Below are positions 11,835-45,512 of a stretch of DNA of 64,000 bases, one piece after another (position 1 is the first letter of the stretch; the number at the start of each line of letters is the position of its first letter). Below the pieces are notes generated by a model. It made no database searches. It saw nothing but the letters and a program-made list of their open reading frames with translations, and was not told where the DNA came from. The DNA comes from Candidatus Latescibacterota bacterium (GTDB lineage Bacteria; Latescibacterota; UBA2968; GCA-2709665). A program made the translations under genes and the position numbers. The DNA lies in assembly GCA_963662665.2 (NCBI GenBank), contig CAXXJS010000061.1, positions 1-64,000 of the forward strand, read 5' to 3'.

Positions 11835-12095
11835 GGGCGGTCGGCTCAGAAACCGTTTGGCCGAGCTTTCGAGAAAGCCAATATTTACAAGCGGATAACG
11901 ATATACACGCTACGGCATTCCTTTGCGACACACCTGCTTGAACGCGGGACCGACCTGCGATATATCCAGGTGTTGCTGGGGCATGCAAGCCCAAAAACCA
12001 CACAGATCTATACTCGGGCGACGAATCGGGATCTCGCGAAAATCCAGAGCCCGCTGGATGCATTGATGGAAGAAAGGGAGGCAGTTTTTGATTAG
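11835..12095 (+). pseudogene. intI: C-terminal fragment of an integron-type tyrosine recombinase (copy 1)
   Basis: [26 protein letters not shown]...TTQIYT...KIQSPLD; N-terminal two-thirds missing; the His of HxLR is replaced by Tyr. Confidence 0.8.
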
Positions 12096-12229
12096 CGACG
12101 ATGCCGCCATAGGCGGCATTCCTGAACATGCTCGGGCTACAAGCTTCAAAGTGGGATGTTCCCGAACGTTCGCAGATCTTCGGATCAGGTACGCATTACC
12201 GTAACGGTTCGGTAATACCGTAGTTAGCA
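12096..12229 (+). other. attI-like recombination region, copy 1
   Basis: Repeat containing CGAACGTTCG and ATTACCG-N8-CGGTAAT, ending at GTTAGCA 12223; similarity among copies stops at the GTT. Confidence 0.7.
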
Positions 12230-12420
12230 GAAATCGCCCCCACCACCCCCAGAAGAACCGTGATTGCGTGCAAAAATAGCCCCACCCTCCCCACCATCAT
12301 CACTCGTTCCTATACTTGGATTTATGCGACAGCGGAGAAATCCCGAGTCAGATCTTCCCTAAATCCAAATCTCGAGATAATTATCAACCATTCGATTGAC
12401 AGAAAACAAGGGAGGCGAGA

Positions 12421-12537
12421 ATGTTCGGCATAGGTCTTTGGGAAATCCTGCTTGTCCTCCTCTTGGGCATGATAGGTTTCTGGCTGTGGATGCTCATTGA
12501 ATGTGCAGTTAAGGAACCGTCCACTAAACTGGGGTAA
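12421..12537 (+). pseudogene. Truncated small membrane protein (PLDc_N-like)
   Basis: GGAGG RBS; MFGIGLWEIL...FWLWMLIECAVKEPS then early stop. Confidence 0.5.
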
Positions 12538-12557
12538 CCCCAGAGAGAGGTGACGCG

Positions 12558-13934
12558 ATGGTACCCTGGATCTTCGTGCACAATCCCCTGGAGCACTGGC
12601 TGGACGACTACCCGCGCATCTTCGACGCGTGGGAGGCGGGAGGGGTGGGCGGCATCGTGGTGGGACGGATGTGGCTCAGGAACCAGGCCGGCATGCCGTT
12701 GTGGGGGGACACCCTCACCCCCTCGTTTGCGGCGGACCCAAAGGTGTACGCCGCGTTCGGCATCAAGCCGCCCCCGGAAACGGCCCGCACCCCCGAGAGG
12801 GAGAAGCAGCTCCACGCGCTCCTCGACAACGCCGCCTCCCGGGGCTGGCACATCATGATCTTCGACTCCAGAGACGGGCTCCGGCTGCTCTACCAGCGGG
12901 GCCAGGGTACCACCAGCGGCCTAGCCGAGGAGGAGGACCCTTTCGGGGCCATCGAGGTGGCCGCCGGGGTGCACGACCTGGCCAGTGCCTATCCCCAGGC
13001 CCACGGCGTCATCTTGGACCAGCCCGGCGAGACCTTCTACGAACTTGCCTTCCATCGGGGTAAGGCCCTACTGGAACTGGACGGTCGCATGCGGCACCGC
13101 CTGGAAGCCATCGGCGCCGATGTGGAGCGCGTCGCCCGCGGCATGGCGCACCTGAACGAGCGTTTCCACAACCTGACTCCGGATCTGGTGCGCTACCACG
13201 CGTCCGGCGGCATGCTGGGGGCACTGAACCTGTTCGACCTGAACGAGGATGCCCTGTACTGGCTGCGCGCCCGCCGCGAAGCGGCGCGGGGGTTCATGCG
13301 CGCCGTGCACGCGCAGATGCAGAGAGTGGGAGGGAAGGTGGAGCTGGGGGGCATTCCGCGCACCGCCGCTTTCTCGTCACTGACCGGGCACGAATTTGGC
13401 GAGATGGCGGAGTACTTCGACTACGTCTGCCCCAAGCACTACTTCTGGCACCGCGGGAATGACGGCCTCTACGGCACCATGGCCCGCTGGGTGCAGCAGG
13501 TCCTGGACTGGAACCCGACCCTGTTGGCGGCAGACGGCTTCGCCGTGGTCAAGGCCTTCCTGGGGCTGGAGCTTCCCGGGGTGCAGACCCTGGCGGACAT
13601 GGAACTGGGGTTCCCCGAGGAGTTCTACTCGGAGCTGGTGTACAACGAGACGCGCCGAGCGCTGGAGGCCATCGGGGATGTGAACAAGGTGATCGCCTGG
13701 GTGTCGACGGGGCGCCGTCCGCACGGGGGCGAGCCCATGACCGCCCGCGACCTGCACGGCATCCTGACCGCCTCCGAGCGGGCCGGCCTGCAGCGCTTCC
13801 TGTTCCAGCCGGACCCTGATCTGAGCGCCCCCGAATGGAGCGTGATCTCCGACCTGTGCGGCAAGCGCTGGCACCCGAGCCGCGACGGGTACTGGCCCTC
13901 GGACTCCAGCAGGCCCGACGCGTTCAGCAGGTAG
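12558..13934 (+). CDS. Uncharacterised protein, possibly glycosidase-like; paralog of 32460-33773
   Basis: Shared blocks EHWLD, PKHYFWHRG.DG.YGT, VIAWVSTGRRPHGG. Confidence 0.75.
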   Translation: MVPWIFVHNPLEHWLDDYPRIFDAWEAGGVGGIVVGRMWLRNQAGMPLWGDTLTPSFAADPKVYAAFGIKPPPETARTPEREKQLHALLDNAASRGWHIMIFDSRDGLRLLYQRGQGTTSGLAEEEDPFGAIEVAAGVHDLASAYPQAHGVILDQPGETFYELAFHRGKALLELDGRMRHRLEAIGADVERVARGMAHLNERFHNLTPDLVRYHASGGMLGALNLFDLNEDALYWLRARREAARGFMRAVHAQMQRVGGKVELGGIPRTAAFSSLTGHEFGEMAEYFDYVCPKHYFWHRGNDGLYGTMARWVQQVLDWNPTLLAADGFAVVKAFLGLELPGVQTLADMELGFPEEFYSELVYNETRRALEAIGDVNKVIAWVSTGRRPHGGEPMTARDLHGILTASERAGLQRFLFQPDPDLSAPEWSVISDLCGKRWHPSRDGYWPSDSSRPDAFSR

Positions 13935-14975
13935 GCATGCGCCCGTTGCGGGACTTATCTGCGGGATTCGTCGCTTCGCCGACTCGGGGAGTCGACGTTC
14001 CCAGGAACCGGCTAATCACAACGTGATTCACCCAATGCGCCGGAAGGCCCGATCCGCCGCGACCCCTTGGCAACGGACGCCACAGGCCCTGATCCCCGGC
14101 CGGCGTTTCCTCCCTGGCACATTGACATCAGGAGACCCCTTACGTATCGTTCAGAGAGATATGACACGTAAGGGAGATTTGACCATTTGTTGCCATCCTG
14201 GTCCTGTCTTCTCGCGTTTCCTCGGGTCTCTGATCTGCCCCTGCGAGCGCATCATGCTGTTGCTGGCATTGGGCGCACGTCAATGTCAGTGGTAGCCTGG
14301 GCAGAAGTTGGGTTGGGGCATTACAATTCTTGGCTCCAATGTCCTTGGTGCTTCTATCTATTTCTTATTTCGAAGACCTAAGCGGATTCGGGAACGCAAT
14401 CAGGAATCACTTGAGCCGTAGCGAACATATCGAGCCTCCCATACACTTCGTGCGTGGTGCTCCGAAGTGACGGCCTCGGACATCGACGTAGAAGATCTGT
14501 ATTGTCGGGCCATGAGCGCCGTCGCAAAATAAAGCGCTCCTGGACCCACCTCAACACCACTACCCACACATTGGCCTGTGTCACACCGGTTGCTTGATTT
14601 TTACACCTATCGAAGTGGCGAAAAGGCGACGGAGAAAACTGAATATCCGGCGGAATGCACCTTCGTCTTGTCCAAAAGCTCACTTGCTAATGACTTGATT
14701 ATGCCGAAGGCTGCGCCCCTACCCAGAGGGCATGCCGCTAAGTTCGGGATCACTTTGCTCGCGTGCCGCTTGGAGGGGCCACTGCCCTTGTTGGTCCTGA
14801 CGTGAAGGTTTTGGAGAGATGTCGTGATCTCTTCGGTATTGCCTAGGGCTAAACCATTTTTTCGAATCGGATCTCAGGTCATCCCAATCAGATGAGAGGA
14901 ACCAAACCTATGTCGCACGCTGTAAGTACGCCCCGATCTCCAGGACCGAGAGGGGCGCCACCCCGATGCGACTTC

Positions 14976-15127
14976 TGCTAACACGGGCTATTCGCTCCGG
15001 TCGCTTCGCTCCCTCCGGCCCTTCGGCCACATTCCCCTTTGTCACGTCGCTTGCTGAGAGACGCAAGCGCCGCGCCAATCCGGCTTCGCCGGACCGGGGA
15101 ACGTCGTATAGCCCGGGAACGTTATGA
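14976..15127 (+). repeat. attC site
   Basis: TGCTAAC...GTTATGA; CGGGCTAT/ATAGCCCG arms; TTCTGCTAAC is the reverse complement of cassette start GTTAGCAGAA (12223). Confidence 0.85.
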
Positions 15128-15321
15128 GAAAATGCCGTTTTTGTCTGAATAGTTGAGAATCAGGGGGCAGAGGCAAAACCATCCCCACACCAGTGGGCCA
15201 TCTAATAAGGCTGGGCGCAAAAAGCGCTTTGGTTTCCGCCCGATTCAAGTTATATTTTGGGAAATAGTTGTATTTGTTTGGCTTAATGGACATTTTCGAG
15301 CCAAAGATCGGGGGCCATTAC

Positions 15322-15624
15322 ATGTCTGCAAAAACGCTAGACCAGCATATTGAGACAACTCCTGGCGTTTCAGGAGGAAAACCGCGCATTGTCGGGCATC
15401 GTATTACCGTGCAAAATATCGTGATCTGGCATGAGCGGATGGGAAAAAGCGCTGACGAAATTGCGACAGAATATGACCTGACGTTGGCGGACATTTATGC
15501 GGCATTGAGTTACTATTTTGATCACCGTGATGAGGTGGACCGGGATATAGAAGAAAGTGAGGAATTTGGTGAAACTTTACGCCGACAAAGCCCTTCTCGA
15601 CTGAAATCAAAGCTCCAGGAATAG
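15322..15624 (+). CDS. DUF433 family antitoxin-like protein
   Basis: PGVSGGKPRIVGHRITV...LTLADIYAALSYY. Confidence 0.88.
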   Translation: MSAKTLDQHIETTPGVSGGKPRIVGHRITVQNIVIWHERMGKSADEIATEYDLTLADIYAALSYYFDHRDEVDRDIEESEEFGETLRRQSPSRLKSKLQE

Positions 15625-15631
15625 GATCCAC

Positions 15632-15961
15632 ATGGCTAAGGTCAGATTCTATACCGATGAGCACGTTTCGAAGGCTGTGGTGATTGGATTGCGCCAAAGG
15701 GGAGCAGATGTTCTCACCGTTAGTGAAGCAGGCCTACTGGGCGCCTCAGACGAGGAACATTTGAGGAAGGCACGGGCAGAAGGACGGATTATTTTCACTC
15801 AAGATATCGATTTCTTACGCCTGGCTGCGGCAGGCATCGAGCACACAGGGATCGTCTACACATCTCAGGTCACTACGGCAGGTAGTATTATCCGCGGTCT
15901 TATGTTGATTTATCAGGTCTTGGAAGCGGAAGAAATGGAAGGTCACATTGAGTATTTGTGA
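15632..15961 (+). CDS. DUF5615 PIN-like toxin (VapC45-like)
   Basis: FYTDEHV, ASDEEHL, IFTQDIDF, HTGI; adjacent to DUF433. Confidence 0.85.
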   Translation: MAKVRFYTDEHVSKAVVIGLRQRGADVLTVSEAGLLGASDEEHLRKARAEGRIIFTQDIDFLRLAAAGIEHTGIVYTSQVTTAGSIIRGLMLIYQVLEAEEMEGHIEYL

Positions 15962-16004
15962 CGACTTAATGCAGAGGTCTGAGGGAGAAAAAAAAGGGAA
16001 AACA

Positions 16005-16036
16005 GAGGGGTGATGGTCGCCCCTTCTTTATTTTTC
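16005..16036 (+). terminator. Probable intrinsic terminator after the TA pair
   Basis: AGGGGTGA-TGG-TCGCCCCT stem followed by a T-rich tail. Confidence 0.55.
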
Positions 16037-16038
16037 TA

Positions 16039-16274
16039 AAGACCACACAGATCTATACTCGGGTTACAAATGGGGATCTCGCGAAAATCCAGAGCCCGTT
16101 GGATGCATTGATGGAAGAAAGGGAGGCAGTTTTCGATTAGAGACGATGCCACCATAGGAAGCATCCCTGAACATGTTCGGGCTACAAGCTTCAGCGTGGA
16201 ATGTTCCCGAACGTTCGCAGATCTTCGGATCAGGTACGCATTACCGTAACTGTTCGGTAATCCCGTAGTTATAT
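16039..16274 (+). other. intI 3' tail plus attI-like region, copy 2
   Basis: Encodes [33 protein letters not shown] (stop 16140); very similar to copy 1; ends at GTTATAT 16268. Confidence 0.8.
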
Positions 16275-16300
16275 GCAACCGTGGTCGAAGAGGACACCGC

Positions 16301-17113: not shown

Positions 17114-17128
17114 GACGACCACGGCAGC

Positions 17129-17216
17129 ATATAACACGTCGGGCTGCGGCTCCGGCCCTTTCGGGCCTTCGCCCAACTTGCCTGCGGCAGGTTCGCAGCC
17201 CGCGAGGACGTTAACA
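17129..17216 (+). repeat. attC site
   Basis: ATATAAC...GTTAACA; CGGGCTGCG/CGCAGCCCG arms; GCATATAAC is the reverse complement of GTTATATGC (16268). Confidence 0.85.
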
Positions 17217-17380
17217 GAAAGCACGCGCCAAAATCAGAACCAGCGGCCATCTTGGCCGCCAAGAAAACCTTTGATATGCTTCTGTTGCCTGTTGGATTTT
17301 TCTACAGCGAATTGGATATGTAGAGTTTCTGCGACCACGACTGAGATATTCCGCGATTCTTCCGTATGGGCAATAGTTAG

Positions 17381-17570
17381 CCCCAATTGGAAAAAACAGC
17401 AGCGCGGTGACGCGACGAAAACCCCTGAAGCGGGGCGTAACCGTCGTCCAAAAGGACAATTTTTCAGTTCACGTCCAGTGACATGGTGTATCCTGGTAAT
17501 CAGAAGTCTAATCGCCTTTATCTGCTTGCATATATTCGGTTTTACTTTCCCGAAGAATTACGAATCAAGG
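17381..17570 (+). mobile_element. ~190-bp MITE-like element, copy 1
   Basis: Six related copies in window; ends CCCCAAT.../...GAATCAAGG; flanked by TTAG direct repeat. Confidence 0.75.
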
Positions 17571-17599
17571 TTAGCCACCAACCGCGTTGGGAACAGACC

Positions 17600-18790: not shown

Positions 18791-18844
18791 GGCTAACAGG
18801 GCTTTCACCCGACTCGCTTCGCTCGTGGGAAGCCCTCGTTATAA
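18791..18844 (+). repeat. attC site (short)
   Basis: GGCTAAC-AGGGCTT...AAGCCCT-C-GTTATAA; GTGGCTAAC is the reverse complement of GTTAGCCAC (17570). Confidence 0.8.
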
Positions 18845-21381: not shown

Positions 21382-21444
21382 TTGAATCATCGACCTTGCC
21401 AGGCTGATATCCCAACGTCCTTCCCGGCAACACAAGAGGATATA

Positions 21445-22365
21445 ATGAATATTGCTACTGAACCCTGCCCTGGGCAGCTACGCCACCACTCTTACGCCGT
21501 GGTGCGCGGTTTGTTCGACGCAGCGACGACAAAACGGCTGCGCGAGATCTGTGAGCGAGTGCTGGAACAGTGGCGGCGCGCTCCTCGCTGTGACAATCCA
21601 CCGGTGGGGCCCCAGGCCAATTACATGAGGCACCTGAACGACCCGGAATATCACCGCGATCACCCCGACGATCTCGCCTTTCTGCTCAATGCCATGGGGT
21701 CGCCCCAAGTTGTCGAATCGCTGAGCGCAGCCTTGGATGAAGAATTCCTCTTCGCCTTGAGCAGTCTCTACTGTAATCCGACCGGAGAAAGCCAGGACGG
21801 ATTTTGGCACAAGGACAAGATCGGTGCAGAAGCAGACGTATCACGAAGACCGGAGACCGGAGCCGGGTTGCAGATGCAAATCGCATTGGTCCCTACCGAC
21901 GATCTCGAAGTGGTGCCGGGGTCTCACCTGCGTGACTACTCCCCCGAAGAGCACGCGATCTGCGTCGCCGATGATGGGATCCACAACCGCTCGAACGATA
22001 TGCCTGGCGCCGTTCGTCTCCACCAGGAACCCGGTGACGCGGTGCTGTTTACCCAGTTGTGCATTCATCGGGGCCGCTATCACACCGACAAGCTCAGGCG
22101 CTCGTTGATGATCTCGGTAAAAAAACGGGCCGCCGCAGAGTTCACGATGCGCCAGCGGGGGCTGAACTACGCCAGTGACCAGCCATGGTTTTTGCTGCCG
22201 CAATACTTCGATGGCGTCAGTGAGGATGCGCGAGCGTTCTTCCAGGAATTCGTCGGCTTCTACGCCCCGCATTGGCGCGCCCGGCTGACGGAGGTGTTGA
22301 AGTACTCGAGTCTGGTACAAAGGCTGGCGGAAGCCGGCGAGCCGTACCCGTTTTTTGGTGAATGA
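21445..22365 (+). CDS. Phytanoyl-CoA dioxygenase (PhyH) family protein
   Basis: WHKD, LEVVPGSH, PGDAVLF...IHRG. Confidence 0.85.
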   Translation: MNIATEPCPGQLRHHSYAVVRGLFDAATTKRLREICERVLEQWRRAPRCDNPPVGPQANYMRHLNDPEYHRDHPDDLAFLLNAMGSPQVVESLSAALDEEFLFALSSLYCNPTGESQDGFWHKDKIGAEADVSRRPETGAGLQMQIALVPTDDLEVVPGSHLRDYSPEEHAICVADDGIHNRSNDMPGAVRLHQEPGDAVLFTQLCIHRGRYHTDKLRRSLMISVKKRAAAEFTMRQRGLNYASDQPWFLLPQYFDGVSEDARAFFQEFVGFYAPHWRARLTEVLKYSSLVQRLAEAGEPYPFFGE

Positions 22366-22444
22366 GAAGTCTGTCTGAATGAATTAGCGGCTACATTTTG
22401 ATACATAAGGCCCCGACAATGAACGGATACGAATTAATAACGAC

Positions 22445-22545
22445 GGCTAACACCGGCTTTACGCTTCGGGGCATCCGCCCCTGGGCCCTGCGGGCACATG
22501 GGCCTTTGGGACTGGCCAACGTCGTAAAGCCAAGAACCGTTATCT
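22445..22545 (+). repeat. attC site
   Basis: GGCTAAC...GGCTTTACG/CGTAAAGCC...GTTATCT. Confidence 0.8.
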
Positions 22546-22905
22546 GAAATGCCAGCCAAGACTCCGGAGACCTTGACCAGTTTTGCCTCTTCGGTTGTCG
22601 GCTGGAGTTACGTGATGGAAGTTCCTGCAGAAAGAACCGTCGTTTTTGCACATGCGCGAAGCGGAAGTACGACGCCTGCCCAATCCATGTCCGAGCCGGA
22701 TTTCCTTGCTTTGCGCGAACACACTATGTATCTTAAGCACTGTAACATGCCGACTGCCTATTGCTACGCCCATGTACTCCCCCCGCATGGCATCCCGACG
22801 GTTTTGACCCGACGACGATCCGCATTCGTAAGCCAGCCTCTACGACTATCGCTGCTCCCTTAAGTGTCTCCCCCCAGAGGCCTTCACCTGAACAGGACTG
22901 TACCC

Positions 22906-25134: not shown

Positions 25135-25237
25135 AGCGAACACGTCCTCTTGCGCTTCGGTCGCGTCCGCTCCCTTCGGCCTGGCGGCAACCCGCCCATA
25201 CACCCGGGCGGGTTCGCAAGTGGCGAGAACGTTAAGC
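25135..25237 (+). repeat. attC site (degenerate R'')
   Basis: CTTGCG/CGCAAG arms, internal AACCCGCCC/GGGCGGGTT hairpin, R' GTTAAGC. Confidence 0.65.
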
Positions 25238-26147: not shown

Positions 26148-26249
26148 GCACAACACGCCCACTTGCGCTGCGGCGCATACGCGCCTCCGACCCAACCTGC
26201 CTCTGCTGCGCTTCGGCAGGTTCGCAGCCCGCGAGAACGAACGTTAAGC
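26148..26249 (+). repeat. attC site
   Basis: GCACAAC...GTTAAGC with internal AACCTGCC/GGCAGGTT hairpin. Confidence 0.7.
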
Positions 26250-27234: not shown

Positions 27235-28110
27235 ATGAAGCTACACATTCTCGGTACCGGTGGTCCGCGTCCCAGCCGTATGGGTGAACGCTACGGGTGT
27301 TCCTGCATTCTCGAGATCGGTGACGATCGTATCATGATTGATTGCGGCCCCGGCACCACCTACAAGATGGCACGCATGGGAATGAGCCCTGCACAGGTGA
27401 ATTCGGTTTTCCTGACTCACCATCATTCGGATCATATCGTTGATTTCCCGTGCTTTGCCTTGCTACGGTACGATCTCGACCCCGGCGATCTTCCACCCCT
27501 CAGAGTCTTTGGTCCGCCTCCGACTGTCGAATTCGTCAATCGCCTTTTTGGCAAGGACGGCGCCTTCCTTCCCGACGTCGTTGCGCGTCGAGAACACCAC
27601 ATCAGCCACCACGGGCACGTGGGGAGGGGCGGAACGCTTCCCCGTCCGGGCATGAAGGTCGATGTATCCGACATCAGTTCAGGAGCGGTTGTCGAAGGGA
27701 AGGGTTGGAAGGCGACGGCTGTACGGGTTCCTCACGTCGAGCCTTACCTGACCGAGTTGGCGTACCGGATCGATACGGATAGCGGCAACGTGCTCTTCCT
27801 TTGCGATGCAGCGGACTGTCCGGAACTGAGGCCATTGGCCAGGGGGGTCGATACATTCGTTACGGGGCTCTCTATGCGCAATTTCAAAGAGAATGACGAA
27901 GATGCTGGGCATCCGATCCGGGGCGTCAGCGCGGACATATCAGAGGTCGTTGACATTGCTAATCAAGCTGGAATATCGAGGGTCGTGGTCATCCACTGCG
28001 GTTCGCCGTGCAGTGAGGACGTCGTCGGCAGGCTCCGCCGAGGTTACCATGGGAATGGGTATAGCGGTTGTATCGTGCGTCCCGACGAGCTTACGACGGT
28101 TGAGATATAG
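27235..28110 (+). CDS. MBL-fold metallohydrolase (RNase Z/arylsulfatase-like)
   Basis: LGTGGP, IDCGPG, THHHSDH. Confidence 0.88.
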   Translation: MKLHILGTGGPRPSRMGERYGCSCILEIGDDRIMIDCGPGTTYKMARMGMSPAQVNSVFLTHHHSDHIVDFPCFALLRYDLDPGDLPPLRVFGPPPTVEFVNRLFGKDGAFLPDVVARREHHISHHGHVGRGGTLPRPGMKVDVSDISSGAVVEGKGWKATAVRVPHVEPYLTELAYRIDTDSGNVLFLCDAADCPELRPLARGVDTFVTGLSMRNFKENDEDAGHPIRGVSADISEVVDIANQAGISRVVVIHCGSPCSEDVVGRLRRGYHGNGYSGCIVRPDELTTVEI

Positions 28111-28157
28111 GTTGTGTAAGAGCGAGGAAGCGGCCTCAGCCCGGCACGGATGATCTA

Positions 28158-28347
28158 CCCCAATTCAAAAAAACAGCAACTCGGCAACGAGACGAAACCC
28201 CCTGAAACGGTGCGTAACGGTCGTCAAAAAGGATATTCTTTCCGTTCACGTCCGGCGACCTGAAGTATCCTGGAAATCCGACGCCAAATCGCCTTTATTA
28301 ACTTGCGTAACTTCGATTTAACGTCCCCGAAAAGTGACGAATCAAGG
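28158..28347 (+). mobile_element. ~190-bp MITE-like element, copy 2
   Basis: Homologous to 17381-17570 along its length; flanks not duplicated. Confidence 0.7.
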
Positions 28348-28378
28348 TTGGAAGGAATAAACTCAAGAGGAGCGTTGC

Positions 28379-28789
28379 GTGAGAATCAGAGGATTCGCTT
28401 TTGTCGGCCACCCGGTGACGAGTCTCAAACGCGCGCGTGAATTCTACGAGACGGTTCTGCGTCTGCCTGAACCCGAAGTCATTGACCCGCCGCGCGGCCC
28501 CGATGGGGATGACGGCTTCATCGAGTACGCAGTGGGCCCCCACGATACGCTCGCGGTCACCACGACCTGGTTTCGTGGCGAACCGCCAGCCGTACTCAGC
28601 GCGGGACTCTCGGTGGAGGTGGAGGATTTTGAAGAGGCCATCGCGCATATAGAAAGCTGTGGCGTATCGTTTGAAATGGGACCCTTCGAAGGAGCCCGCT
28701 GCAGCATCGCCGTGATCAAGGACCCGGACGGGAATCAGATTGGTATCCATAAGCTCAAAGAGATTCCTGATGTGTCGAAGCGAAGCTGA
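28379..28789 (+). CDS. VOC/glyoxalase family protein
   Basis: RAREFYETVL, KDPDGNQI. Confidence 0.88.
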   Translation: MRIRGFAFVGHPVTSLKRAREFYETVLRLPEPEVIDPPRGPDGDDGFIEYAVGPHDTLAVTTTWFRGEPPAVLSAGLSVEVEDFEEAIAHIESCGVSFEMGPFEGARCSIAVIKDPDGNQIGIHKLKEIPDVSKRS

Positions 28790-28869
28790 TCAGTCCGATT
28801 GGGTTCGTAGCAGTTCTCCGCACGGACCAGCCCGAATGCCGGCTGGCGCTGGCGGGGCAACTTTAAAAA

Positions 28870-29073
28870 GGGTTCTCGCAAGAACCCAAGAGCACGTTGA
28901 CGAAATAATGAATGAGAATGAACCAGCATTCGATTTGAGGCGTTGGCTGATTAACAATAGGCGTTCCTGAACATCTTTGGCTCAAGGCTCCAACGTAACG
29001 AGCTTTCGAACGTTCGCACATCCCCCGACCAGATGCGAATTATCGTAAATATCCGGTAATACGGTCGTTATCT
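28870..29073 (+). other. Diverged intI 3' tail plus attI-like region, copy 3
   Basis: VLARTQEHVDEIMNENEPAFD resembles [21 protein letters not shown]; CGAACGTTCG and CGGTAAT-N6-GTT (29067) conserved. Confidence 0.7.
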
Positions 29074-29958: not shown

Positions 29959-30037
29959 AGGTAACAAGTGGCTCACGGCTCCGCTTCGCTCCGCACGAAC
30001 CCGCGATCGCGGGTTCGTGAGCCACTGAACGTCAGGC
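29959..30037 (+). repeat. attC site
   Basis: AGGTAAC-AAGTGGCTCACG...CGTGAGCCACT-GAAC-GTCAGGC; R'' complements GTTATCTGCC (29067) with one mismatch. Confidence 0.75.
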
Positions 30038-32459: not shown

Positions 32460-33773
32460 ATGAAACTCTGGGTATTCACCTGCAGCGACAGCCCGTTCGA
32501 ACACTGGCTCGACGGGTTCGAGGAGCGGTTCGACGCATGGGAGGATGGCGGCGTGAGGGGCTTGGCCGTCGGCCGCATGTCATTCCTCCAGGAGGATGGC
32601 ACCACCATTCCGGCGTGGGCTCCCGACCCGAAGGTGTACGAGGCTCTCGGGGCGGAAGTCCCGGAGCAGCGTCCGCGCGACCTCTCGAAAGAGAAGAAGC
32701 TGCACGCAATGCTGGACAATGCCGCGGAGCGGGGCTGGCGACTGCTGATTTTCGCCGGAGGCGGCCCGACCGCCCACGTGCAGGACCAGATGAACGCCTT
32801 TCCACAGGTGCACGGCGTCGTTGTCGACGGTCCGGGCGAAAACCACTACGAGCTGGCCTTCCACCACGGGGGCGAACTCCTGGAGATCCGTCCGGGTGAG
32901 GAGGCCCGGTTCGCCCAGGTCGGCGCCGAGATGGATCGAATACAACGCGGCATCACCCACTTTCGGGAGCGTCTGCACAATCTGACACCGGAAATGGTGC
33001 GGTACCACGCCGACGGGGGGATGCTGGGGGCAATGCTCCTGTTCGACGTCAACGAGGACGTACTCTACTGGCTGCGCAAGCGGCAGGAGCGCTCTCGCTT
33101 CGACTGGCAGTACATGCGGCAACAGGTCGACGCCGTCGACCGCAAGGTGGAGCTGGGCGGTATCCCGCGGGCCGTGTCGTGGTCATCGCTCACCGGACAG
33201 AATTACTGTCAGATGGCGGAGTATTTCGACTATATTTTTCCGAAACACTATTTTTGGCACCGCGGCATGGACGGGATGTACGGAACCATATCCCGCTGGG
33301 TAAGACGGTTGCGAAAGTGGAATCCGTCCTTGAGCGAGGCGGAGTGTTTCGCCGTCGTGAAGGCGCTGTTGGGCATCGAGCTGCCTGGTGTCAACTCGCT
33401 GATGGATATGGAGATGGGTTTCCCGGACGAATTCTTCTCCAGGGTGGTCTACAACGAGACTCGGCGGGCCCTGGCGGCCATAGGTGATCCCGACAAGGTG
33501 ATCGCCTGGGTGTCCACGGGTCGGCGCCCCCACGGCGGCGACCCGATGCAGGCGCGCGATCTCTACGGCATCCTGACTGCTTCGCAGGAGGCGGGGTTGA
33601 AGCGCTTTCTGTACCATCCCGAGCCGGATTTCGGGGCGGCGGAATGGACCATCATCTCGTCGATGTGCGGAAACCAATGGGATGAAGACGCCGGCGGGTA
33701 CTGGCCGACGGGGACCGACAAGCCAGGGTTCTGGGACGGCGGGCGCGAGGTACCCGAAGAGGGCCGAATATGA
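32460..33773 (+). CDS. Uncharacterised protein, paralog of 12558-13934
   Basis: Colinear similarity; GGAGG RBS. Confidence 0.8.
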   Translation: MKLWVFTCSDSPFEHWLDGFEERFDAWEDGGVRGLAVGRMSFLQEDGTTIPAWAPDPKVYEALGAEVPEQRPRDLSKEKKLHAMLDNAAERGWRLLIFAGGGPTAHVQDQMNAFPQVHGVVVDGPGENHYELAFHHGGELLEIRPGEEARFAQVGAEMDRIQRGITHFRERLHNLTPEMVRYHADGGMLGAMLLFDVNEDVLYWLRKRQERSRFDWQYMRQQVDAVDRKVELGGIPRAVSWSSLTGQNYCQMAEYFDYIFPKHYFWHRGMDGMYGTISRWVRRLRKWNPSLSEAECFAVVKALLGIELPGVNSLMDMEMGFPDEFFSRVVYNETRRALAAIGDPDKVIAWVSTGRRPHGGDPMQARDLYGILTASQEAGLKRFLYHPEPDFGAAEWTIISSMCGNQWDEDAGGYWPTGTDKPGFWDGGREVPEEGRI

Positions 33774-34625: not shown

Positions 34626-34740
34626 AATCAGAAGCCTGATGTTGCGCGCTGTGTGTCTGCCCGTGACAGGCTTCGCCGCGATGGGGCTGCCGGCGGTTAA
34701 CAGGCCGTTATGCGAAGCAGCGGAAAGGAAATGAAGCGCC

Positions 34741-35397
34741 ATGCTGAAAGCCATTCTTTGGGACAACGACGGCGTCCTGGTCGACACCGAAGGCCTGTAT
34801 TTCCAGGCCTGCCGCGAAACCCTTGAACCCCTCGGCGTCCGCCTGAGCGAAGCCCGTTTTATCGAGTCCTTCCTCAAGGCCAGCGATGGTCTTACCAGGA
34901 TCGCCGCCGAACACGGCATTGACGAACAGGCGCTGGAGTCCGCCCGCATCTGGCGCAACGCCCGCTATACCGAACGCTTGCGCGCCGGCGTACCCGTCAT
35001 CGACGGCGCTCGCCAGGTGCTGCGCCAACTTCACGGCACCGTGCGCATGGGCATCGTCACCAGTTCGCGGCGGGAGCACTTTGAGATCATCCACGCCGCC
35101 ACCGGCCTGCTGGACTGCATCGATTTCACGCTTGTGCGCGAAGACTACCGGCATTCCAAGCCGGACCCCGAGCCCTACCTCACGGCCATGCGGCAAAACG
35201 GCCTTAGCGCCGCCGAATGCGTCGTTATTGAAGACTCGGACCGGGGGCTGCGCGCCGCACTGGCGGCCGGGCTGCGCTGCATCGTCATACCGCAGGGCCT
35301 GACGCGCGGCCTGGACTTCACCGGCGCCACGCGGCAACTGACCGATATCCGTCAGGTCCCACCGCTGATCCATGAACTGATGCAAACTCAACCCTGA
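34741..35397 (+). CDS. HAD family phosphatase
   Basis: WDNDGVLVDTE, KPDPEPY, IEDS; stop codon falls inside MITE copy 3. Confidence 0.92.
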   Translation: MLKAILWDNDGVLVDTEGLYFQACRETLEPLGVRLSEARFIESFLKASDGLTRIAAEHGIDEQALESARIWRNARYTERLRAGVPVIDGARQVLRQLHGTVRMGIVTSSRREHFEIIHAATGLLDCIDFTLVREDYRHSKPDPEPYLTAMRQNGLSAAECVVIEDSDRGLRAALAAGLRCIVIPQGLTRGLDFTGATRQLTDIRQVPPLIHELMQTQP

Positions 35398-35582
35398 TTT
35401 ATCATTTTTCGGGGACGTTAATTCGCATATACGCAAGTGTATAAGGGCGATTTGAAGTCGGATTTCTAGGAACCTTCAGGTCGCTGGACGTGAACGGAAA
35501 AAATGTCCATTTCAATGACCGACTCGACCCAATTTGGAAAGACTTTTCGCGGCACCGCGTTGTTGCTTTTGTGTAATTAAGC
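35392..35582 (-). mobile_element. ~190-bp MITE-like element, copy 3 (diverged)
   Basis: Reverse-complement homolog; TCAA on both flanks. Confidence 0.65.
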
Positions 35583-38888: not shown

Positions 38889-39968
38889 TTGGGGTCATCA
38901 CGGTTATGCGAAAGTGAGTTCGGCGTGTTTAGAGCGGATCTCTTCCAGGCGCACCTGGAAAACTGGGAACTCATTCTGCAGGAGCGAACCGTTGAAGCCA
39001 TCGAACGGATCGCGTCTGTTCCTGGCGTTGGGGGTGTGATTCTTGGGGGTAGCATTGGGCGAGGAATGGCGTGGCCCATATCAGATATAGACCTCATCTA
39101 CATTACTACCAGGGCGGCGGACAACAGTCTTCCAAAGGCAGTGGACGAACTTGCGTTGTCCATCACAAGGGAGTGGGCTCGGGACACGTGGCCGACGTCT
39201 GTTGACGCAGGCCGACTCCATTTTACAGCCGATGAGGCGGACGACTTGATCAATGGCAAGCGTCACTTGGACAAGCTGATGGCCAATGAGAGGATTTTCC
39301 ATGCGACCGACAAAAGCCACCTCGGTCAATCAGTTCACGCGTCTGAGGATTGCGATACTCCTGCATTTGTTGCGCTACTTTCCGATGGTCGATTTGACCC
39401 ATCGGTTGTCCGGGCACGCCAAATCGAGCGAGTCAGACGTGTAACAAGGCTCGCCCATCGAGTGAAGTCACATCTGCAGGCAGGTCGTCTGAATGCAGCA
39501 GGGATCTCTATACAGGAACTCGCGCGTGTTATAATCCCATATCTGAAGGAAAGTTGGGGGCATGGAGATCGGTCCTTTGGGAGGGTTTTCACTCGCTTTT
39601 GCGTTCTGGCTCAGGAGCACCTGGAAGAAGGAATTGCGAATCGTCTCATTCGTCTGTTCTCTCTTACGGCGGATGAGGTAGAAGCACGGTACGCGAAGGC
39701 TCCAGCTAATGTTGTGGAGCGGCACATCACATCGTATCCATCCCGCCTGGCCGCGGGCGAGGAGGTCACGGAGCTCGATGACAAACGCGATGTCCTGTAT
39801 GCCTATACGTGGTATGCAGTTCGTTCTGGTGAAACTGGTTCGTGGCTCCTCAATGAGGACCTGCACAAGTCTCAACTCAAGTTGTCATTGGATCAAACAG
39901 CATCCATATGGGCCGAGGTGGTCTCGAAGGAGCCGGATTGCGTATCCAGCGAACTCACCTTCGCATAA
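38889..39968 (+). CDS. Nucleotidyltransferase-domain protein (start uncertain, probably downstream of 38903)
   Basis: LGGSIGRG...SDIDL; GTTATGCGAA (38903) matches TTCGCATAAC (39960). Confidence 0.7.
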   Translation: MGSSRLCESEFGVFRADLFQAHLENWELILQERTVEAIERIASVPGVGGVILGGSIGRGMAWPISDIDLIYITTRAADNSLPKAVDELALSITREWARDTWPTSVDAGRLHFTADEADDLINGKRHLDKLMANERIFHATDKSHLGQSVHASEDCDTPAFVALLSDGRFDPSVVRARQIERVRRVTRLAHRVKSHLQAGRLNAAGISIQELARVIIPYLKESWGHGDRSFGRVFTRFCVLAQEHLEEGIANRLIRLFSLTADEVEARYAKAPANVVERHITSYPSRLAAGEEVTELDDKRDVLYAYTWYAVRSGETGSWLLNEDLHKSQLKLSLDQTASIWAEVVSKEPDCVSSELTFA

Positions 39969-40098
39969 CACGAGCACCCACGGCTCCAGCCATCCGACCT
40001 CCGCCCAACCTGGCTTCGCCGCCCTTCTGGCGCCCCGGCCCCTGGCAACCGGCTTCGCAGGTTCGCAAATCGTGAGACCTTGGCGGACGTCGTTTAGG
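39963..40098 (+). repeat. attC site
   Basis: GCATAAC overlapping the stop codon; family GGTTCG motif; R' GTTTAGG degenerate. Confidence 0.6.
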
Positions 40099-40115: not shown

Positions 40116-40724
40116 ATGACGACGCCAGAGATTCCCTTCAGCCATTGGCAACCGTTGTCAGTCCGGGAATTGACGCAATTGTTCGCTGGCGCCCCTTTCC
40201 TGTGGGGACTCGCGGGTGGCTATGCGGTTGAACAGTTCGCGGGAAGGCGCGTCCGAGACCACGATGATATTGACGTTATCGTGTTCCGGGATCAACAACT
40301 CGACGTACAGCGATGGCTCTCAAATTGGCATCTTTACGCGGCAGATCCAGCTGGCTCATTGCGACCATGGGCGGAATCAGAGTACTTGCCTTACGGGATA
40401 TTTGACATATGGGGCCATACCGGCGTACGGGTATGGCAGCTTCAGATTATGTTAACTGAAAGCGAACGCGACAGGTGGTTCAGCAAGCGCAGCAGACTGA
40501 TAGGCGGGCAACGAGAAGATTTGATCGTTGCATATAGAGGTGTTCCCTGCATTCGGATTGAGGTTCAATTGCTTTACAAAGCAAAGAATCCTCGTTCGAA
40601 AGATGACCTGGACCTTGAAACGTGCCTGCCGCTGATGTCCGCCGAGGCAAAGAGATGGTTGGGGACCGGGTTGGAAGTTCTGTATCCTGAAGGTCATCGC
40701 TGGCAAAGTCTTCTGTCGAAATAG
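40116..40724 (+). CDS. Aminoglycoside 2''-adenylyltransferase-like nucleotidyltransferase
   Basis: LAGGYAV...RDHDDID, QLLYKAK...KDDLD. Confidence 0.75.
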   Translation: MTTPEIPFSHWQPLSVRELTQLFAGAPFLWGLAGGYAVEQFAGRRVRDHDDIDVIVFRDQQLDVQRWLSNWHLYAADPAGSLRPWAESEYLPYGIFDIWGHTGVRVWQLQIMLTESERDRWFSKRSRLIGGQREDLIVAYRGVPCIRIEVQLLYKAKNPRSKDDLDLETCLPLMSAEAKRWLGTGLEVLYPEGHRWQSLLSK

Positions 40725-41872: not shown

Positions 41873-42640
41873 TTGAGCGAAGACGTCAGACGATTTTACG
41901 ATGCCCTGGCAGCCGATTACCATCACGTTTACGCAGACTGGGAATCGGCAATCAAACGGCAGTCGTGTGTACTGGATCGGTTGATTCAATGTGAATCGTC
42001 AGTAGATGCATCGCTTGTCCTGGACTGTACATGTGGAATAGGCACCCAGGCAATTGGCCTGGCGCGGCGAGGATACGAAGTCTTCGCGTCCGATCTTAGC
42101 CCGAAGGCGATTGCCAGGGCGAAATCAGAAGCAGATAACCGGGGACTGAAGATTGATTTCGCCGTTGCCGATGTTCGTGAGGTGGAATGTGCCTTCTCCC
42201 ACACATTTGACGTCGCGATCAGTTGTGATAACTCTCTACCGCATCTTTTGACTGACGAAGACTTGACTCTCGCTCTCCGAAGCATTCGGCGCACACTTGC
42301 CGGTAATGGACTGTTTATTGCCAGTATTCGCGATTACGATCGGCTGCTTGCGGAAAGACCGTCGTTTATGGGTGGGAACGTCCAGGGTGTACCGGAGCGC
42401 GAGGTCATAACGTTTCAGATCTGGGACTGGTCGAAGGAATCAGATACCTATTTGATTCGGCTCTTCATAATGAACCAGAAACCGGGTGGATGGCAAGTAC
42501 GGGAGGTCAGGACTCGCTACCGGGCAATTCGGCGCAAAGAGCTCACTCTGGCTCTGGAGTCAGCCGGGTTTGCGAAAATTGCCTGGCATACACCTGAGCA
42601 GTTGGGTTATTTTCAACCCGTTGTGACGGCGCGTGCTTAA
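41873..42640 (+). CDS. Class I SAM methyltransferase (glycine/sarcosine N-methyltransferase-like)
   Basis: LDCTCGIGTQ, CDNSLPHL, SIRDYD. Confidence 0.88.
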   Translation: MSEDVRRFYDALAADYHHVYADWESAIKRQSCVLDRLIQCESSVDASLVLDCTCGIGTQAIGLARRGYEVFASDLSPKAIARAKSEADNRGLKIDFAVADVREVECAFSHTFDVAISCDNSLPHLLTDEDLTLALRSIRRTLAGNGLFIASIRDYDRLLAERPSFMGGNVQGVPEREVITFQIWDWSKESDTYLIRLFIMNQKPGGWQVREVRTRYRAIRRKELTLALESAGFAKIAWHTPEQLGYFQPVVTARA

Positions 42641-42831
42641 CCTTGATTGGTTGTTTTTCCGGGACGTAAAATCGAATTTAGGCAAGTGGATAAAGGCGAT
42701 TTGACTTCTGGTTACCGGGATACACCAGGTTACTGGACGTGAACTGAAAACACGTCCTTTTTGACGACCGTTACGCCGCGTTTCATGGGTTTTCGTCGCG
42801 TCGCCGCGTTGCTGTTTTTTTCGGACTGGGG
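42641..42831 (-). mobile_element. ~190-bp MITE-like element, copy 4
   Basis: Reverse-complement homolog; flanks TTAA/TTTA; directly after the stop codon. Confidence 0.75.
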
Positions 42832-42848
42832 TTTATTGAGTCTGCTTC

Positions 42849-42939
42849 CGATAACAGCACGTTTTGCGCTGCGGCGCTGATCGCGCCCTGGCCTACGGCA
42901 ACCGCTTCGCAGTTCGCGCACGGCGGCAAGACGTTAGAT
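42849..42939 (+). repeat. attC site
   Basis: CGATAAC...GTTAGAT; shares AACAGCACGTTTTGCGCTG with attC 26943; TTCCGATAAC matches ATTATCGGAA (41835) with one mismatch. Confidence 0.75.
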
Positions 42940-43043
42940 GAAATGGGAAACGTAAAATCAGACTATTGCAGAATAACTCCAGATAGCGGGAGATGTTCTG
43001 CATATTTATCGCTCAGTCACTGGTTGGCCGCAGAGAATACCGG

Positions 43044-43508
43044 ATGACCAGGAAGATTCCCGAATGTGAATTCCACGATCCAGGACACCTGGTCGACGGA
43101 GATCTTGAGCTTGTCCTCACCGAGGCGCTTCCGTCCGATTCTGAGAAGGGACGGGTGCCCGAGTACCGTTTCGAGATGCGGCTCATTGTCAGCAAAGCGA
43201 CGATCGGCAGCATCCGCCTCAGGACCCGGTTGACGGAAAGGCTCGAACAGTATGGAGGAAATCTGAGCTACGATGTTCAGGAGGAATACCGTGGGAACAG
43301 ATATGCTGCCCGCAGTTGCCGCCTCCTGTTCCCCCTTGCTCGCAGCCATGGATTGGACTCGCTGTTGATCACTTGCCGTTCCGATAACGACGCATCCAGG
43401 AGGACCTGTGAGCTGATCGGGGCGACATACGTCGACACCATCGAAACCGAACGGGAGCCAGGAGAATTCGGGCCAACGTGCCGGTACAGACTGGACCTGG
43501 ACACATAA
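43044..43508 (+). CDS. GNAT family N-acetyltransferase
   Basis: GGNLSYDV...YRGNRYA, ITCRSDNDASRR. Confidence 0.85.
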   Translation: MTRKIPECEFHDPGHLVDGDLELVLTEALPSDSEKGRVPEYRFEMRLIVSKATIGSIRLRTRLTERLEQYGGNLSYDVQEEYRGNRYAARSCRLLFPLARSHGLDSLLITCRSDNDASRRTCELIGATYVDTIETEREPGEFGPTCRYRLDLDT

Positions 43509-43518
43509 AGGTCGTCTC

Positions 43519-43728
43519 ATGAAGCATATTATCGTAGCCAGAGAAGAAGGCCGATTCCTGGGATGGCCGGCCAACGACGGGGTATGGAGCTGGGCGGACG
43601 AGATCGTCGTTGGCTATACGAACGGCGGCAACGAGTGCCTGTTCTTCCTGTCGGTGCGGGTCCCACAGGTGATGGCGGGGTTCCTGATGGACAGCGTAGA
43701 GGTCGGCTACTATGTGCATATCGGCTGA
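43519..43728 (+). pseudogene. N-terminal fragment of a sialidase/BNR-like protein
   Basis: GRFLGWPANDGVWSWADEIVVGY, then unrelated sequence. Confidence 0.45.
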
Positions 43729-45157
43729 ATTTAAGCGGGCAGTAGAAGCAGCCGTGAAGGCCATCCACGCCAACGATAGGGCTGGTCTAAACAGCCTCGT
43801 CGCGGAGTACCCCGGTCTGCTCGCGTGGTCCAATCCGGACGACGAGCGTCCCGTTCTGCTCTACGCCACCGTCTCCTATGCCAACTTTCCCGGCACCGGG
43901 GATGAAGACGTCTTCAACCGGCCCGACTGTGCGCGCCTGCTGCTCGATGCTGGCGCGGTAATGCACCCCCGGGTCTACTTGAGGGCGATCGACACCGGCG
44001 CACACGGCATGCTGGCGCTGTTTGACGAATACGGCGTACTGCCGGAAAACCTGCGTACGTTGACCGCGAGGGGCGATCTCGACAGGGTGCGGGGATGTTT
44101 CGACCCTGCCGGCGCCCTGCGCAACGTTGGACGCCCGGACGCGGAACTGCGCATCGGGTACACCGGCGCCGAGGCGGACTGGCCCGATCCCGCGGATGAA
44201 CAGTTGATCATTGCCGACGCGTTTCTGTACGCCTGCCGGCTGGGCCGTCGCGACGTCGCGCATTTTCTGATGGATCGTTGCCTTCAACTGGACGAAGATC
44301 TCCGGACCCGTGTGGACGCGTTGCAGGGAAAAACGGCCTTTACCGAGTACCTGCTGGAGAAGCGGCCGGAGGGGGGAAGACAGGTGCGCTCGTACCGGGA
44401 GGCGGACGACGATCCCGGTCTGATCTGGCGTCGTGCCGTGGAACTGCGCCTGCTCGCCGCCCTGGACGATGGAGACGGGGATTCCATCCGCGATCTGCTC
44501 GCCACCGAAAGCTTTCTTCTTGGACCCCGCTATCTCGAGACCCAGGAAATGTTGCTTGCGGTAGCGGCCTGCTCCAGGGGAAAACTGCCGGTGATCGAAG
44601 CCGTGATCACCGCCGGCGCCGCCATCACCACGGTGGTTGAGCCGCCGGCGTCTGGCGCCGTCCTCTATGCTCTCGAATACGGAAATGCCGACTACGTTCC
44701 GGCCTTGTCGCAAATCTGGCCCGTGCCCGACGATCTGCCCCACGCTGCCGGTCTGGGCGACATGGAAGCAGTCGAAAAGAGGTTCGCGAAGGGGATTCCG
44801 CAATTGGGCGATCCTACCTTGTATGCCTGCGCACCCGGGGAATCGCCATTGGCCAGCGTTCAGGAGATTGTCGACAGGGCTTTGGCCTGGGCGGTGCAGA
44901 ACGGGAACTACCAGATCGCGGACTATCTCCTGGACCACGGAGCCAATATCAACACGAGATGGAGCACTCACGAGCCGGCCAGCATCCTGCACGAATGCGC
45001 CTTCGCCGGCCGCATGGAACAGGTGGTTTATCTCGTTCGCAAAGGGATCGACGTGACTCTCAGGGATCATCGACACGATGCCACCCCGGAAGACTGGGCA
45101 CGGCACGCGGGTCAAAAAGAAGTCGCCGAATATCTTGCGGGATTGAAGGGCAGGTGA
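43712..45157 (+). CDS. Ankyrin repeat protein (possibly N-terminally truncated)
   Basis: LLDAGA, ALAWAVQNG, LLDHGANIN, ILHECAFAG. Confidence 0.8.
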   Translation: MCISAEFKRAVEAAVKAIHANDRAGLNSLVAEYPGLLAWSNPDDERPVLLYATVSYANFPGTGDEDVFNRPDCARLLLDAGAVMHPRVYLRAIDTGAHGMLALFDEYGVLPENLRTLTARGDLDRVRGCFDPAGALRNVGRPDAELRIGYTGAEADWPDPADEQLIIADAFLYACRLGRRDVAHFLMDRCLQLDEDLRTRVDALQGKTAFTEYLLEKRPEGGRQVRSYREADDDPGLIWRRAVELRLLAALDDGDGDSIRDLLATESFLLGPRYLETQEMLLAVAACSRGKLPVIEAVITAGAAITTVVEPPASGAVLYALEYGNADYVPALSQIWPVPDDLPHAAGLGDMEAVEKRFAKGIPQLGDPTLYACAPGESPLASVQEIVDRALAWAVQNGNYQIADYLLDHGANINTRWSTHEPASILHECAFAGRMEQVVYLVRKGIDVTLRDHRHDATPEDWARHAGQKEVAEYLAGLKGR

Positions 45158-45311
45158 TCCGCGGTTCCGTTTGCGCTATCTGACAAGCTCATCCGGCGGA
45201 TCGTAGAGAATCCCGGCTGTTTCGACCGGCCGTGACGGAGGTGAAGCTGAGCCTGTGCCGATCACTTGCGCCGGCATGGGGAAATAACCTTCAGGTTGGG
45301 CAATTCTGCAT

Positions 45312-45512
45312 ACGGATATCGCAAGAACCCAAAGGCACCTTGATGTAATAATGAATGAGAATGAAGCAGGATTCAACTAAGGACGGTAGCTGATGAATAG
45401 CATGCCTGAACATCTTCGGCTACAAGCTCCATCGTAACACACTCTCGAACGTTCGCAGATCCTCCAACCAGATACGAATTACCGTTACTATTCGGTAATA
45501 CCGCAGTTAGGC
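45312..45512 (+). other. Diverged intI 3' tail plus attI-like region, copy 4
   Basis: TDIARTQRHLDVIMNENEAGFN* (stop 45380); closest to copy 3; CGAACGTTCG, ATTACCG-N8-CGGTAAT, GTTAGGC 45506. Confidence 0.72.

Follow-up and report, generated by a model that had tools for sequence, protein, structure and literature searches.

Architecture of the locus

The DNA analysed here (the window) covers the initial 64 kb of the 270-kb contig CAXXJS010000061.1 (hereafter C61), which belongs to a 4.86-Mb, 92% complete assembly (GCA_963662665.2) of a sponge-associated Candidatus Latescibacterota bacterium, and our subject is a cassette array in it that contains four copies of a module, each made of a recombinase gene stump and an attI-like site. 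"Sponge metagenome" is the label of some of the sequencing runs in which small portions of the stretch occur. By definition, an integron has one type of integrase and one entry site, and the first bases of an integron cassette pair with the R'' side of the cassette's own attC. By their Pfam matches, the genes up to position 11764 are core genes (cytochrome oxidase subunits and assembly proteins, SCO1, a family B polymerase and a peptidoglycan-binding protein), and from 12226 on nearly all genes lie on the plus strand and form an accessory mix that includes methyltransferases, toxin-antitoxin pairs, NUDIX, GNAT, ankyrin and Kelch proteins, a phosphotransferase, and nucleotidyltransferase-like enzymes. 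The array border is the peptidoglycan-binding gene (11018..11764, Pfam PG_binding_1), the last core gene before the first module, which is syntenic at 84–86% identity in the relatives G013 and G011. In the window, the border gene, the modules, the pinned sites, cassette 1, the toxin-antitoxin cassette, and the int-A head relic described below are on the plus strand.

The four modules are co-oriented and are located at about 11823–12226 (m1), 16038–16271 (m2), 28855–29070 (m3), and 45298–45509 (m4). Every module consists of the 3' stump of a recombinase gene, which we call int-A, and a conserved non-coding core of ~112–134 bp that ends in GTTA. The stump of m1 (11823..12095) comprises 89 codons, matches residues 244–332 plus stop of the intact int-A of relatives (85% by tblastn to the G013 gene), and is also recognised by TIGR02249 (positions 242–315, 87.6–90.6 bits) and by Pfam Phage_integrase; its core follows at 12096..12226, with the junction G at 12223 (profile E 1.1e-42). 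The stump of m2 (16038..16140) is shorter, with 32 codons that match residues 301–332 plus stop at 94% in tblastn and in the alignment, and its core (16141..16271, G at 16268) has a profile E of 3.8e-44. The stumps of m3 and m4, with ~20–30 diverged codons, are detectable only in the aligned frame and are not matched by tblastn with intact int-A, yet when translated in that frame they keep a matching C-terminal pattern of ~20 residues. In m3 (stump 28855..28955, aligned to m4 and m1; core 28956..29070, G at 29067, E 1.9e-26) the homologous stop codon is lost, and in m4 (stump 45288..45380; core 45393..45509, G at 45506, E 1.5e-31) the stump ends at it. The m4 stump and the same upstream flank recur in G007 and G001 (87–89%), with a shorter match in G005 (84%). 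A full-length gene of this second lineage was found in none of the 22 family genomes that we compared.

Identity is 92% over 234 bp between m1 and m2, 76–78% over ~200 bp between m3 and m4, and 67–81% over the last ~112 bp between the two pairs, and stumps and cores alike fall into two lineages, m1/m2 and m3/m4. The landmarks of the core are a CGAACGTTCG palindrome, two inverted 7-mers 8 bp apart (ATTACCG-N8-CGGTAAT, with one mismatch in the left arm in m3), and GTTA six bases later, right after which the similarity between modules stops in the alignment. A sequence-only reading made before this analysis had described the four modules, these motifs, the end of similarity at the GTT, and the two subfamilies, and all of this is borne out by alignment and BLASTN, with the BLAST-refined left ends of m3 (~28855) and m4 (~45298) lying ~15 bp to the left of the earlier coordinates. 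It had also considered that the repeat might occur genome-wide with no link to cassettes. This is not what we find: BLASTN of each module against the whole assembly returns only these four copies, all on the plus strand of C61, and a profile built from 35 distinct cores and searched against the whole assembly adds one partial core of 53 nt on the same contig, outside the window (C61:90296–90348, E 8.6e-9), which is truncated at 90.3 kb by a copy of an unrelated ~200-bp repeat. A weak profile match on another contig (C25) was rejected as a core, the GTTA end being missing on inspection.

A relic of the 5' end of int-A was identified at 54093..54251, corresponding to residues 1–53, the N-terminal extension before the recombinase fold (77% by tblastn; 83% identical in DNA to the beginning of the gene in G013). 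Internal promoters had been raised as a possibility for the modules as well, and none of the four has a match to a sigma-70-like promoter consensus in a scan that is weak and may not fit the phylum. Rfam at gathering thresholds gives no matches in the window.

attC-like sites and cassette junctions

Eleven attC-like sites were pinned in the array, in a single orientation and at gene boundaries. Their design comprises ..AAC, a short spacer, an arm of 8–11 bp, a variable middle, the complementary arm, a longer spacer, and GTT.., with a spacer asymmetry of 3–5 nt on the R''-L'' side versus 6–8 nt on the L'-R' side. The site of cassette 1 (12224..15121), the cassette directly behind m1, is at 14976–15127; the site closing the methyltransferase cassette behind m2 is at 17129..17216, with R''/R' and L''/L' inverted repeats and a bottom-strand hairpin z of −2.8; and the site after the first cassette of m3, in which R' reads GTC, is at 29959..30037 (hairpin z −3.3). 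Further sites are at 18791–18844, 22445–22545, 25135–25237, 26148–26249, 39963–40098, 42849–42939, 48297–48377, and 51460–51541. When eight of the sites were folded, four, that at 29959 and three of the further sites just listed, gave better hairpins than nearly all shuffles; these well-folded sites have L stems of 8–11 bp and carry no single-base bulges on the R''-L'' arm, which is the arm of the canonical extrahelical bases in the account of folded attC by Bouvier 2009 (PMC2727003), as far as its relevant passages go. Because a site of the same design stands behind a canonical IntI in G017, another member of the family, the design does not reveal which enzyme uses it, and an argument from attC sites without extrahelical bases for a recombinase without the IntI insertion was dropped for the same reason. 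Home-made attC detectors (constrained folding, anchored stems, and local alignment of arms) were also dropped, being too noisy or too strict in GC-rich DNA, and no attC covariance model was used, MAFFT having shifted the L stems by one column relative to each other among the sites.

Cassette junctions were scored by comparing positions 5–17 after the junction G with the flank, reverse-complemented, of each attC that had been pinned. The modules m1, m2, and m3 score 10/13, 11/13, and 10/13 with the attC-like sites at 14976, 17129, and 29959, respectively, while 154 non-cognate pairs have a mean of 3.75, a standard deviation of 1.71, and a maximum of 8. One ordinary attC-to-attC pair also scores 10, and overall the cassette start pairs with its own R'' flank at 10–11/13 in four of the 11 consecutive pairs; the low scores of several ordinary neighbours probably come from decayed or missed intervening attC sites. 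In G013, two modules score 10/10. The comparison thus supports the module GTT as a cassette junction that would have been made by site-specific recombination for m1, m2, and m3, and the complementarity is longer than the stretches of nine or ten bases first noticed for these three copies.

Several further features of the cassette ends were observed. The pairing between cassette start and R'' is ~15–17 nt long after 12223, 16268, 29067, and 25231, versus the textbook 7, and a semi-conserved motif right behind the R' box is common to many cassettes. A change that looks compensatory, by eye only, involves a cassette start reading GTC (30031–30037) and an end-site R'' with ..GAT for ..AAC (~34636–34644), between which the boxes would still pair.

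Cassettes have moved recently. Cassette 1 is 98–99% identical to the cassette behind an internal module in G013, G011, and G007, whereas the modules ahead of it are only ~91% identical across those genomes and the core flank only 84–86%; several other cassettes are likewise 97–99% identical between species whose flanking core genes are 84–86% identical. In a contig of run X15, cassette 1 has different neighbours, with divergence beginning at 11907 (in the module) and at 15125 (in the attC R' box). A 1.1-kb unit with a dioxygenase-like gene and an attC (21427–22549) is found twice in G013 at 99% identity and also on a separate contig of another sample with other flanks; in the window, there is no recognisable attC at its left boundary, 21427.

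The cassette that precedes m2 is informative about how a module came to lie there. This toxin-antitoxin cassette (15122..16037; Pfam DUF433 at 15268–15624, PIN-like at 15632–15961) has no attC of its own and carries a terminator-like hairpin at 16005–16025 in a terminator scan. The copy in G008 (97%) runs on into its own attC-like site, and homology between the window and G008 breaks at 16043, at the left end of m2, after which the m2 stump follows. The left end of m2 is thus a deletion or replacement junction that removed the attC together with the 5' part of the recombinase gene. In the units closed by m2, m3, and m4, the first pinned site met on going upstream is the GTT of an attC, with no other pinned attC between it and the module.

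The recombinase int-A

The best solved-structure match of int-A is the integron integrase VchIntIA (PDB 2a3v, 151.8 bits), in two pieces, with the 27 residues 217–243 of int-A standing opposite the 69 residues 171–239 of VchIntIA. The match to TIGR02249 also comes in two pieces that skip model positions 175–234, and reaches 214 bits against a cut-off of 265; on the XerA/"integron integrase" model, int-A scores 218.6 bits against a cut-off of 220. Compared with the canonical IntI of G017, identity is 36%, with 45 gap positions at the same place. IntI proteins are characterised by an additional domain of ~35 residues near patch III. By sequence, int-A is not a canonical integron integrase, as an IntI-specific segment of ~42 residues is missing and the score is below the family cut-off. 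The description of the stumps as IntI-like in the sequence-only reading is therefore right as to the nearest known structure and wrong as to the insertion and the family threshold.

The int-A family is very large and extends across many phyla (7796 of 8000 candidates scored at E ≤ 1e-20), and downstream of homologues in other phyla (52% and 42% identity) no recognisable core was found. A canonical IntI above the cut-off was detected neither in this genome nor in 16 genomes of two genera, and of 41 genomes searched, this one among them, only two possess one. Given its position, its orientation, and the junctions, we infer that int-A is the natural candidate for the integrase of these arrays.

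In G017, a tyrosine recombinase and an IS91-type Y2 transposase are packaged together as an integron cassette (G017:C1:2494700–2497233, L087/L088; also L089). This cassette, with Y2_Tnp and Zn_Tnp_IS91, has an R'' box that pairs with its own first bases, and occurs as 100% identical copies of 2535 bp, one as the first cassette after the canonical co-oriented IntI and one inside another attC.

Modules and platforms in related genomes

The comparison set comprised 22 genomes of the family: 15 of the same genus (this one included), two of a sister genus, and five of three further genera. The core was found in 15 of the 22 (this genome, 12 of the 14 others of the genus, and both of the sister genus), at one to seven copies per carrier, and in none of the five genomes of the three further genera. 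Almost all matches end at query position 130–134, which is the GTT. When 40 modules of relatives were compared together with the four of the window, the right ends of all 44 were fixed at the GTT, while the left ends were ragged, falling at reference positions from 912 to 1283 (the gene ends near 1196), and several of the relatives' cores are shortened to 48–80 nt. Eight of the 44 modules, m1 and seven from relatives, stand directly behind the peptidoglycan-binding gene; all eight have only a stump, with at least five different breakpoints.

The sequence-only reading had proposed searching the genome and its relatives for full-length donor genes, and these exist in relatives. In G013, which has seven cores, an intact co-oriented int-A of 333 codons is followed directly by a core that shares 94% identity with m1. 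In G011, an uninterrupted int-A frame of 270 codons and a core are located at the array border, ~780 bp after the peptidoglycan-binding gene, which is the simplest layout and presumably the ancestral one. In an intact relative the int-A stop lies 134 bp upstream of the GTT, and the 134-bp site behind the stop is present in G013, G011, and L023. G007 has an int-A copy with an internal deletion, and in this 92% complete assembly neither profile nor tblastn searches found an intact copy. G017 shows the same layout with a canonical co-oriented IntI, with 178 bp from the stop codon to the first cassette GTT and an inverted repeat ~8 bp before that GTT.

A block consisting of two small genes, one open reading frame, int-A, and the site is 99% identical over 1753 bp between G013 and G007, despite core DNA that is 12–16% different from each other's relatives. 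The block starts within an R' box in both genomes, after the attI-like GTTA of the border module in G013 and after an ordinary attC GTTA in G007. This supports the view that blocks carrying a recombinase gene plus site do move, much as the sequence-only reading had supposed when it considered growth by capture of attI-bearing blocks. The different contexts, with both ends at GTT, suggest a platform that would behave like a cassette with an attI-like core as its 3' site. A target duplication around the block was considered and rejected, the likeness of the junctions coming from the semi-conserved first ~15 nt of many cassettes.

Origin of the modules

The modules are rather probably relics of several copies of an integron-like platform whose recombinase gene was deleted from the 5' side, because in relatives an intact int-A lies upstream of the same GTT, the right ends are fixed, and the left ends vary. 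The platform would comprise int-A, read toward the cassettes, and then a double-stranded attachment site of ~134 bp with a crossover at the terminal GTT. The ancestral order would have been core gene, int-A, site, and cassettes, as still found in G011. Additional platforms would enter arrays within blocks bounded on the left by a GTT junction and on the right by an attI-like GTT of their own, behaving like cassettes with an attI instead of an attC as the 3' site. Surplus copies of int-A would then be lost by deletions from the 5' side, which would often take the attC of the preceding cassette, and would leave modules of stump plus site with a fixed right end and ragged left ends; each site would have taken up a cassette before or after this decay. 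The module anatomy, the junctions, the comparative layouts, and the deletion junction of m2 are directly observed, and we infer that int-A acts at these sites and that the blocks move by site-specific recombination. With four stumps, a head fragment, and a 53-nt partial core, and with no intact int-A, the array of this genome is probably frozen. A more tentative proposal, which we regard as possible but on balance doubtful, is that Latescibacterota have a second kind of integron for which int-A serves as the working integrase, with a platform that inserts like a cassette and with loading at several depths in intact strains.

Several observations weigh against these interpretations. The attC-like sites were chosen by visual inspection of intergenic DNA and then located with a script rather than by IntegronFinder, and the other four of the eight folded sites do not beat their shuffles. 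While the earlier claim that each module received a cassette by site-specific recombination is upheld by the junction test for m1, m2, and m3, m4 scores 7/13, which is not significant above background. An apparently intact int-A is present in only two of 15 genus genomes, which is odd for a working system. The enzyme is closer to the IS91-linked recombinase of G017 (46%) than to the IntI of the same family (36%), and it is without the segment by which IntI reads folded attC sites. At the junctions of the block shared by G013 and G007, three of the four bases after GTTA differ, so the exchange need not have taken place at G|TT. In addition, the order of segments lacks independent confirmation, since short-read contigs break inside m1 and m2.

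The sequence-only reading had put forward, as one of two possibilities, internal entry points served by an integrase in trans. The modules would then have been kept as working sites, used by an int-A or another integrase from the unassembled 8% of the genome or from a mobile element, and cassettes may be taken in, perhaps also expressed, at several depths within the array. It is consistent with this that the ~112-bp core is still 67–81% identical between lineages whose stumps have diverged beyond tblastn detection, that the cassettes behind m1, m2, and m3 make three of the four best start/R'' matches among the 11 pairs, as expected for recent insertions, and that G013 combines an intact int-A with seven cores. 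However, the conservation of the core may just reflect young age, several cores of relatives and the fifth copy here are shortened to 48–80 nt in a manner that resembles decay, no module has a promoter-like match, and with neither an intact int-A nor a canonical IntI in this assembly there is no candidate enzyme, so that we consider service in trans unlikely. Still less likely, in our view, is that the modules are not attI sites but the right ends of an int-A-bearing mobile element that homes to the GTTs of integron sites in arrays built by a canonical IntI since lost. The nearest characterised neighbour of int-A here is indeed the recombinase of an IS91-type pair (Y2_Tnp, Zn_Tnp_IS91), to which it is 46% identical without the gap seen against IntI; the identical copies of the G017 pair are placed exactly at the GTT of an attI and at that of an attC, its right end of hairpin, ~8 nt, and GTT resembles a module, an element at a cassette boundary would also be expected ahead of a cassette start, and a canonical IntI is present in the same family. 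Yet the G017 element is itself an ordinary cassette, its first bases pairing with its own attC-like R'', while a module has no such R'' and no end-to-end folding, and the Y2 transposase (PF04986) has no matches in the four genus genomes searched (G000, G013, G011, and G007) as against six in G017. Moreover, the int-A and core of G011 lie at a fixed chromosomal border, like a resident platform, and cassettes are 98–99% identical between species with no canonical IntI in 15 genus genomes.

Finally, separate loci could have been joined by the assembler to give the modules. In three DNA runs, the Logan contigs are interrupted within m1 (12059–12185) and m2 (16104–16230), and none bridges a whole module; however, an assembler with k=31 is expected to break at exact repeats, 127-nt pieces specific to m1 and to m2 are found unchanged and evenly covered in all three runs, which come from two studies, and the single-contig genomes G007 and G014 and the 5.6-Mb contig of G013 show four to seven cores in the same type of array, which makes this explanation very improbable. 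Joints in the contig layout that appeared to go back were explained by a paralogous gene and by a contig of another organism. Parts of the stretch are also covered in a run labelled as RNA, but by the sequence of a relative, and this does not prove transcription.

If a recombinase without the IntI domain does run such arrays, integron finders that rely on that domain would miss a whole class of them, and such arrays would be filed as orphan attC clusters that have no integron integrase (CALINs). A platform that behaves like a cassette would explain the spread of arrays to new loci and species, and would show how internal attachment sites originate in chromosomal arrays as well as in clinical class 1 and 2 integrons. 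Both intact and decayed versions of the platform occur naturally in the genus. Even if int-A is not the enzyme, this remains a clear case of repeated platform decay in a large array, in an uncultured sponge-associated phylum.

Other features of the array

Some cassette genes have resistance-like folds, identified by family-level matches only and in an environmental symbiont: a weak match to an aminoglycoside nucleotidyltransferase (40116–40724), an APH-family phosphotransferase (45665–46636), a metallo-beta-lactamase fold (27235–28110), and a glyoxalase/bleomycin-resistance fold (28379–28789). Two cassette genes with no Pfam family (12961–13897 and 32770–33706, 458 and 504 codons) are paralogues with 69% DNA identity and have counterparts in the arrays of relatives. 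A small cassette open reading frame of ~56 codons (48452–48660) matches, at 82% DNA identity, the part of the border gene (11018–11764) that encodes its C-terminal peptidoglycan-binding domain; this repeated tail (48494–48641) was considered as a second array border, which was ruled out once it proved to be the small cassette frame. The ~200-bp repeat occurs in both orientations at 17375–17577, 28157–28349, 35387–35521, 42634–42838, 60122–60321, and 61872–62075, and the family has 77 BLAST hits genome-wide, 15 of them on C61, with contig depths 4–20 times those of the surroundings in three DNA runs; it has no Rfam match, looks MITE-like, and is unrelated to the modules.

Comparison with known systems

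In literature searches on Latescibacterota integrons (titles and the starts of abstracts), on IS91 with tyrosine recombinase and attC, and on attI duplication in chromosomal arrays, the present arrangement was not found described among the matches listed. Wu et al. state, in the passage concerned, that each integron has only one attI site (PMC3607928), and the sequence-only reading had taken the same view; exceptions have nevertheless been published in the form of delta-attI-type cassettes of mobile integrons, of the order attC-ORF-delta-attI, in which attI, in part or as a whole, takes the place of the attC. In the sections describing them, the retained length ranges from 8–12 nt up to 238 nt, or is the whole 65-bp attI1, and the sites, from integrons of classes 1 and 2, are reported to be recombination-proficient (PMC12901181). 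The units that end in m2, m3, and m4 have this architecture, and the toxin-antitoxin cassette fits it, having an attC in G008 and a stump and site here. Unlike the published cases, the copies here are mostly long (48 to ~400 nt) and have the recombinase stump attached, which would be dragged along with the site because int-A is co-oriented; they also recur throughout a genus, with one to seven in each genome, inside large arrays on the chromosome, and their recombinase is no IntI. Measured against the definition of an integron, relatives have a site next to the int-A gene with the first cassette at the GTT, but this genome has four to five copies of the attI-like site instead of a single one.

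Co-oriented ("inverted integrase") integrons, for example that of Treponema, are alike in orientation and have a canonical IntI in the parts of the accounts that describe them (PMC3607928, PMC4889954). int-A shares with VchIntIA the N-terminal SAM-like and catalytic domains, a C-terminal "SPLD" end, and, within the stump, HxxR, H, and Y at conserved positions, and differs in the missing IntI-specific insertion. It also differs from an IS91-family element, as no HUH Y2 transposase is present in the genus genomes searched. With CALINs, clusters of attC sites without an integron integrase, near 15 of 279 of which IntI pseudogenes were reported in the relevant part of Cury et al. 2016 (PMC4889954), the present array shares attC-like sites with no intact integrase nearby; unlike the CALINs described there, it has several remnants inside the array, each with an attachment site and each from a non-IntI recombinase. 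About one third of intI genes are pseudogenes, one fifth of hosts have more than one intI, and some of these come from intragenomic duplication, according to the corresponding passages of Nemergut et al. 2008 (PMC2426708), where they are scored as genes, whereas here they are repeated attI-bearing modules in one array. What is new, in comparison with these systems, is the combination of such sites in a large chromosomal array, their recurrence across a genus, and the stumps that document repeated gain and decay of platforms, together with the presence in such arrays of a recombinase that falls outside the definition of IntI.

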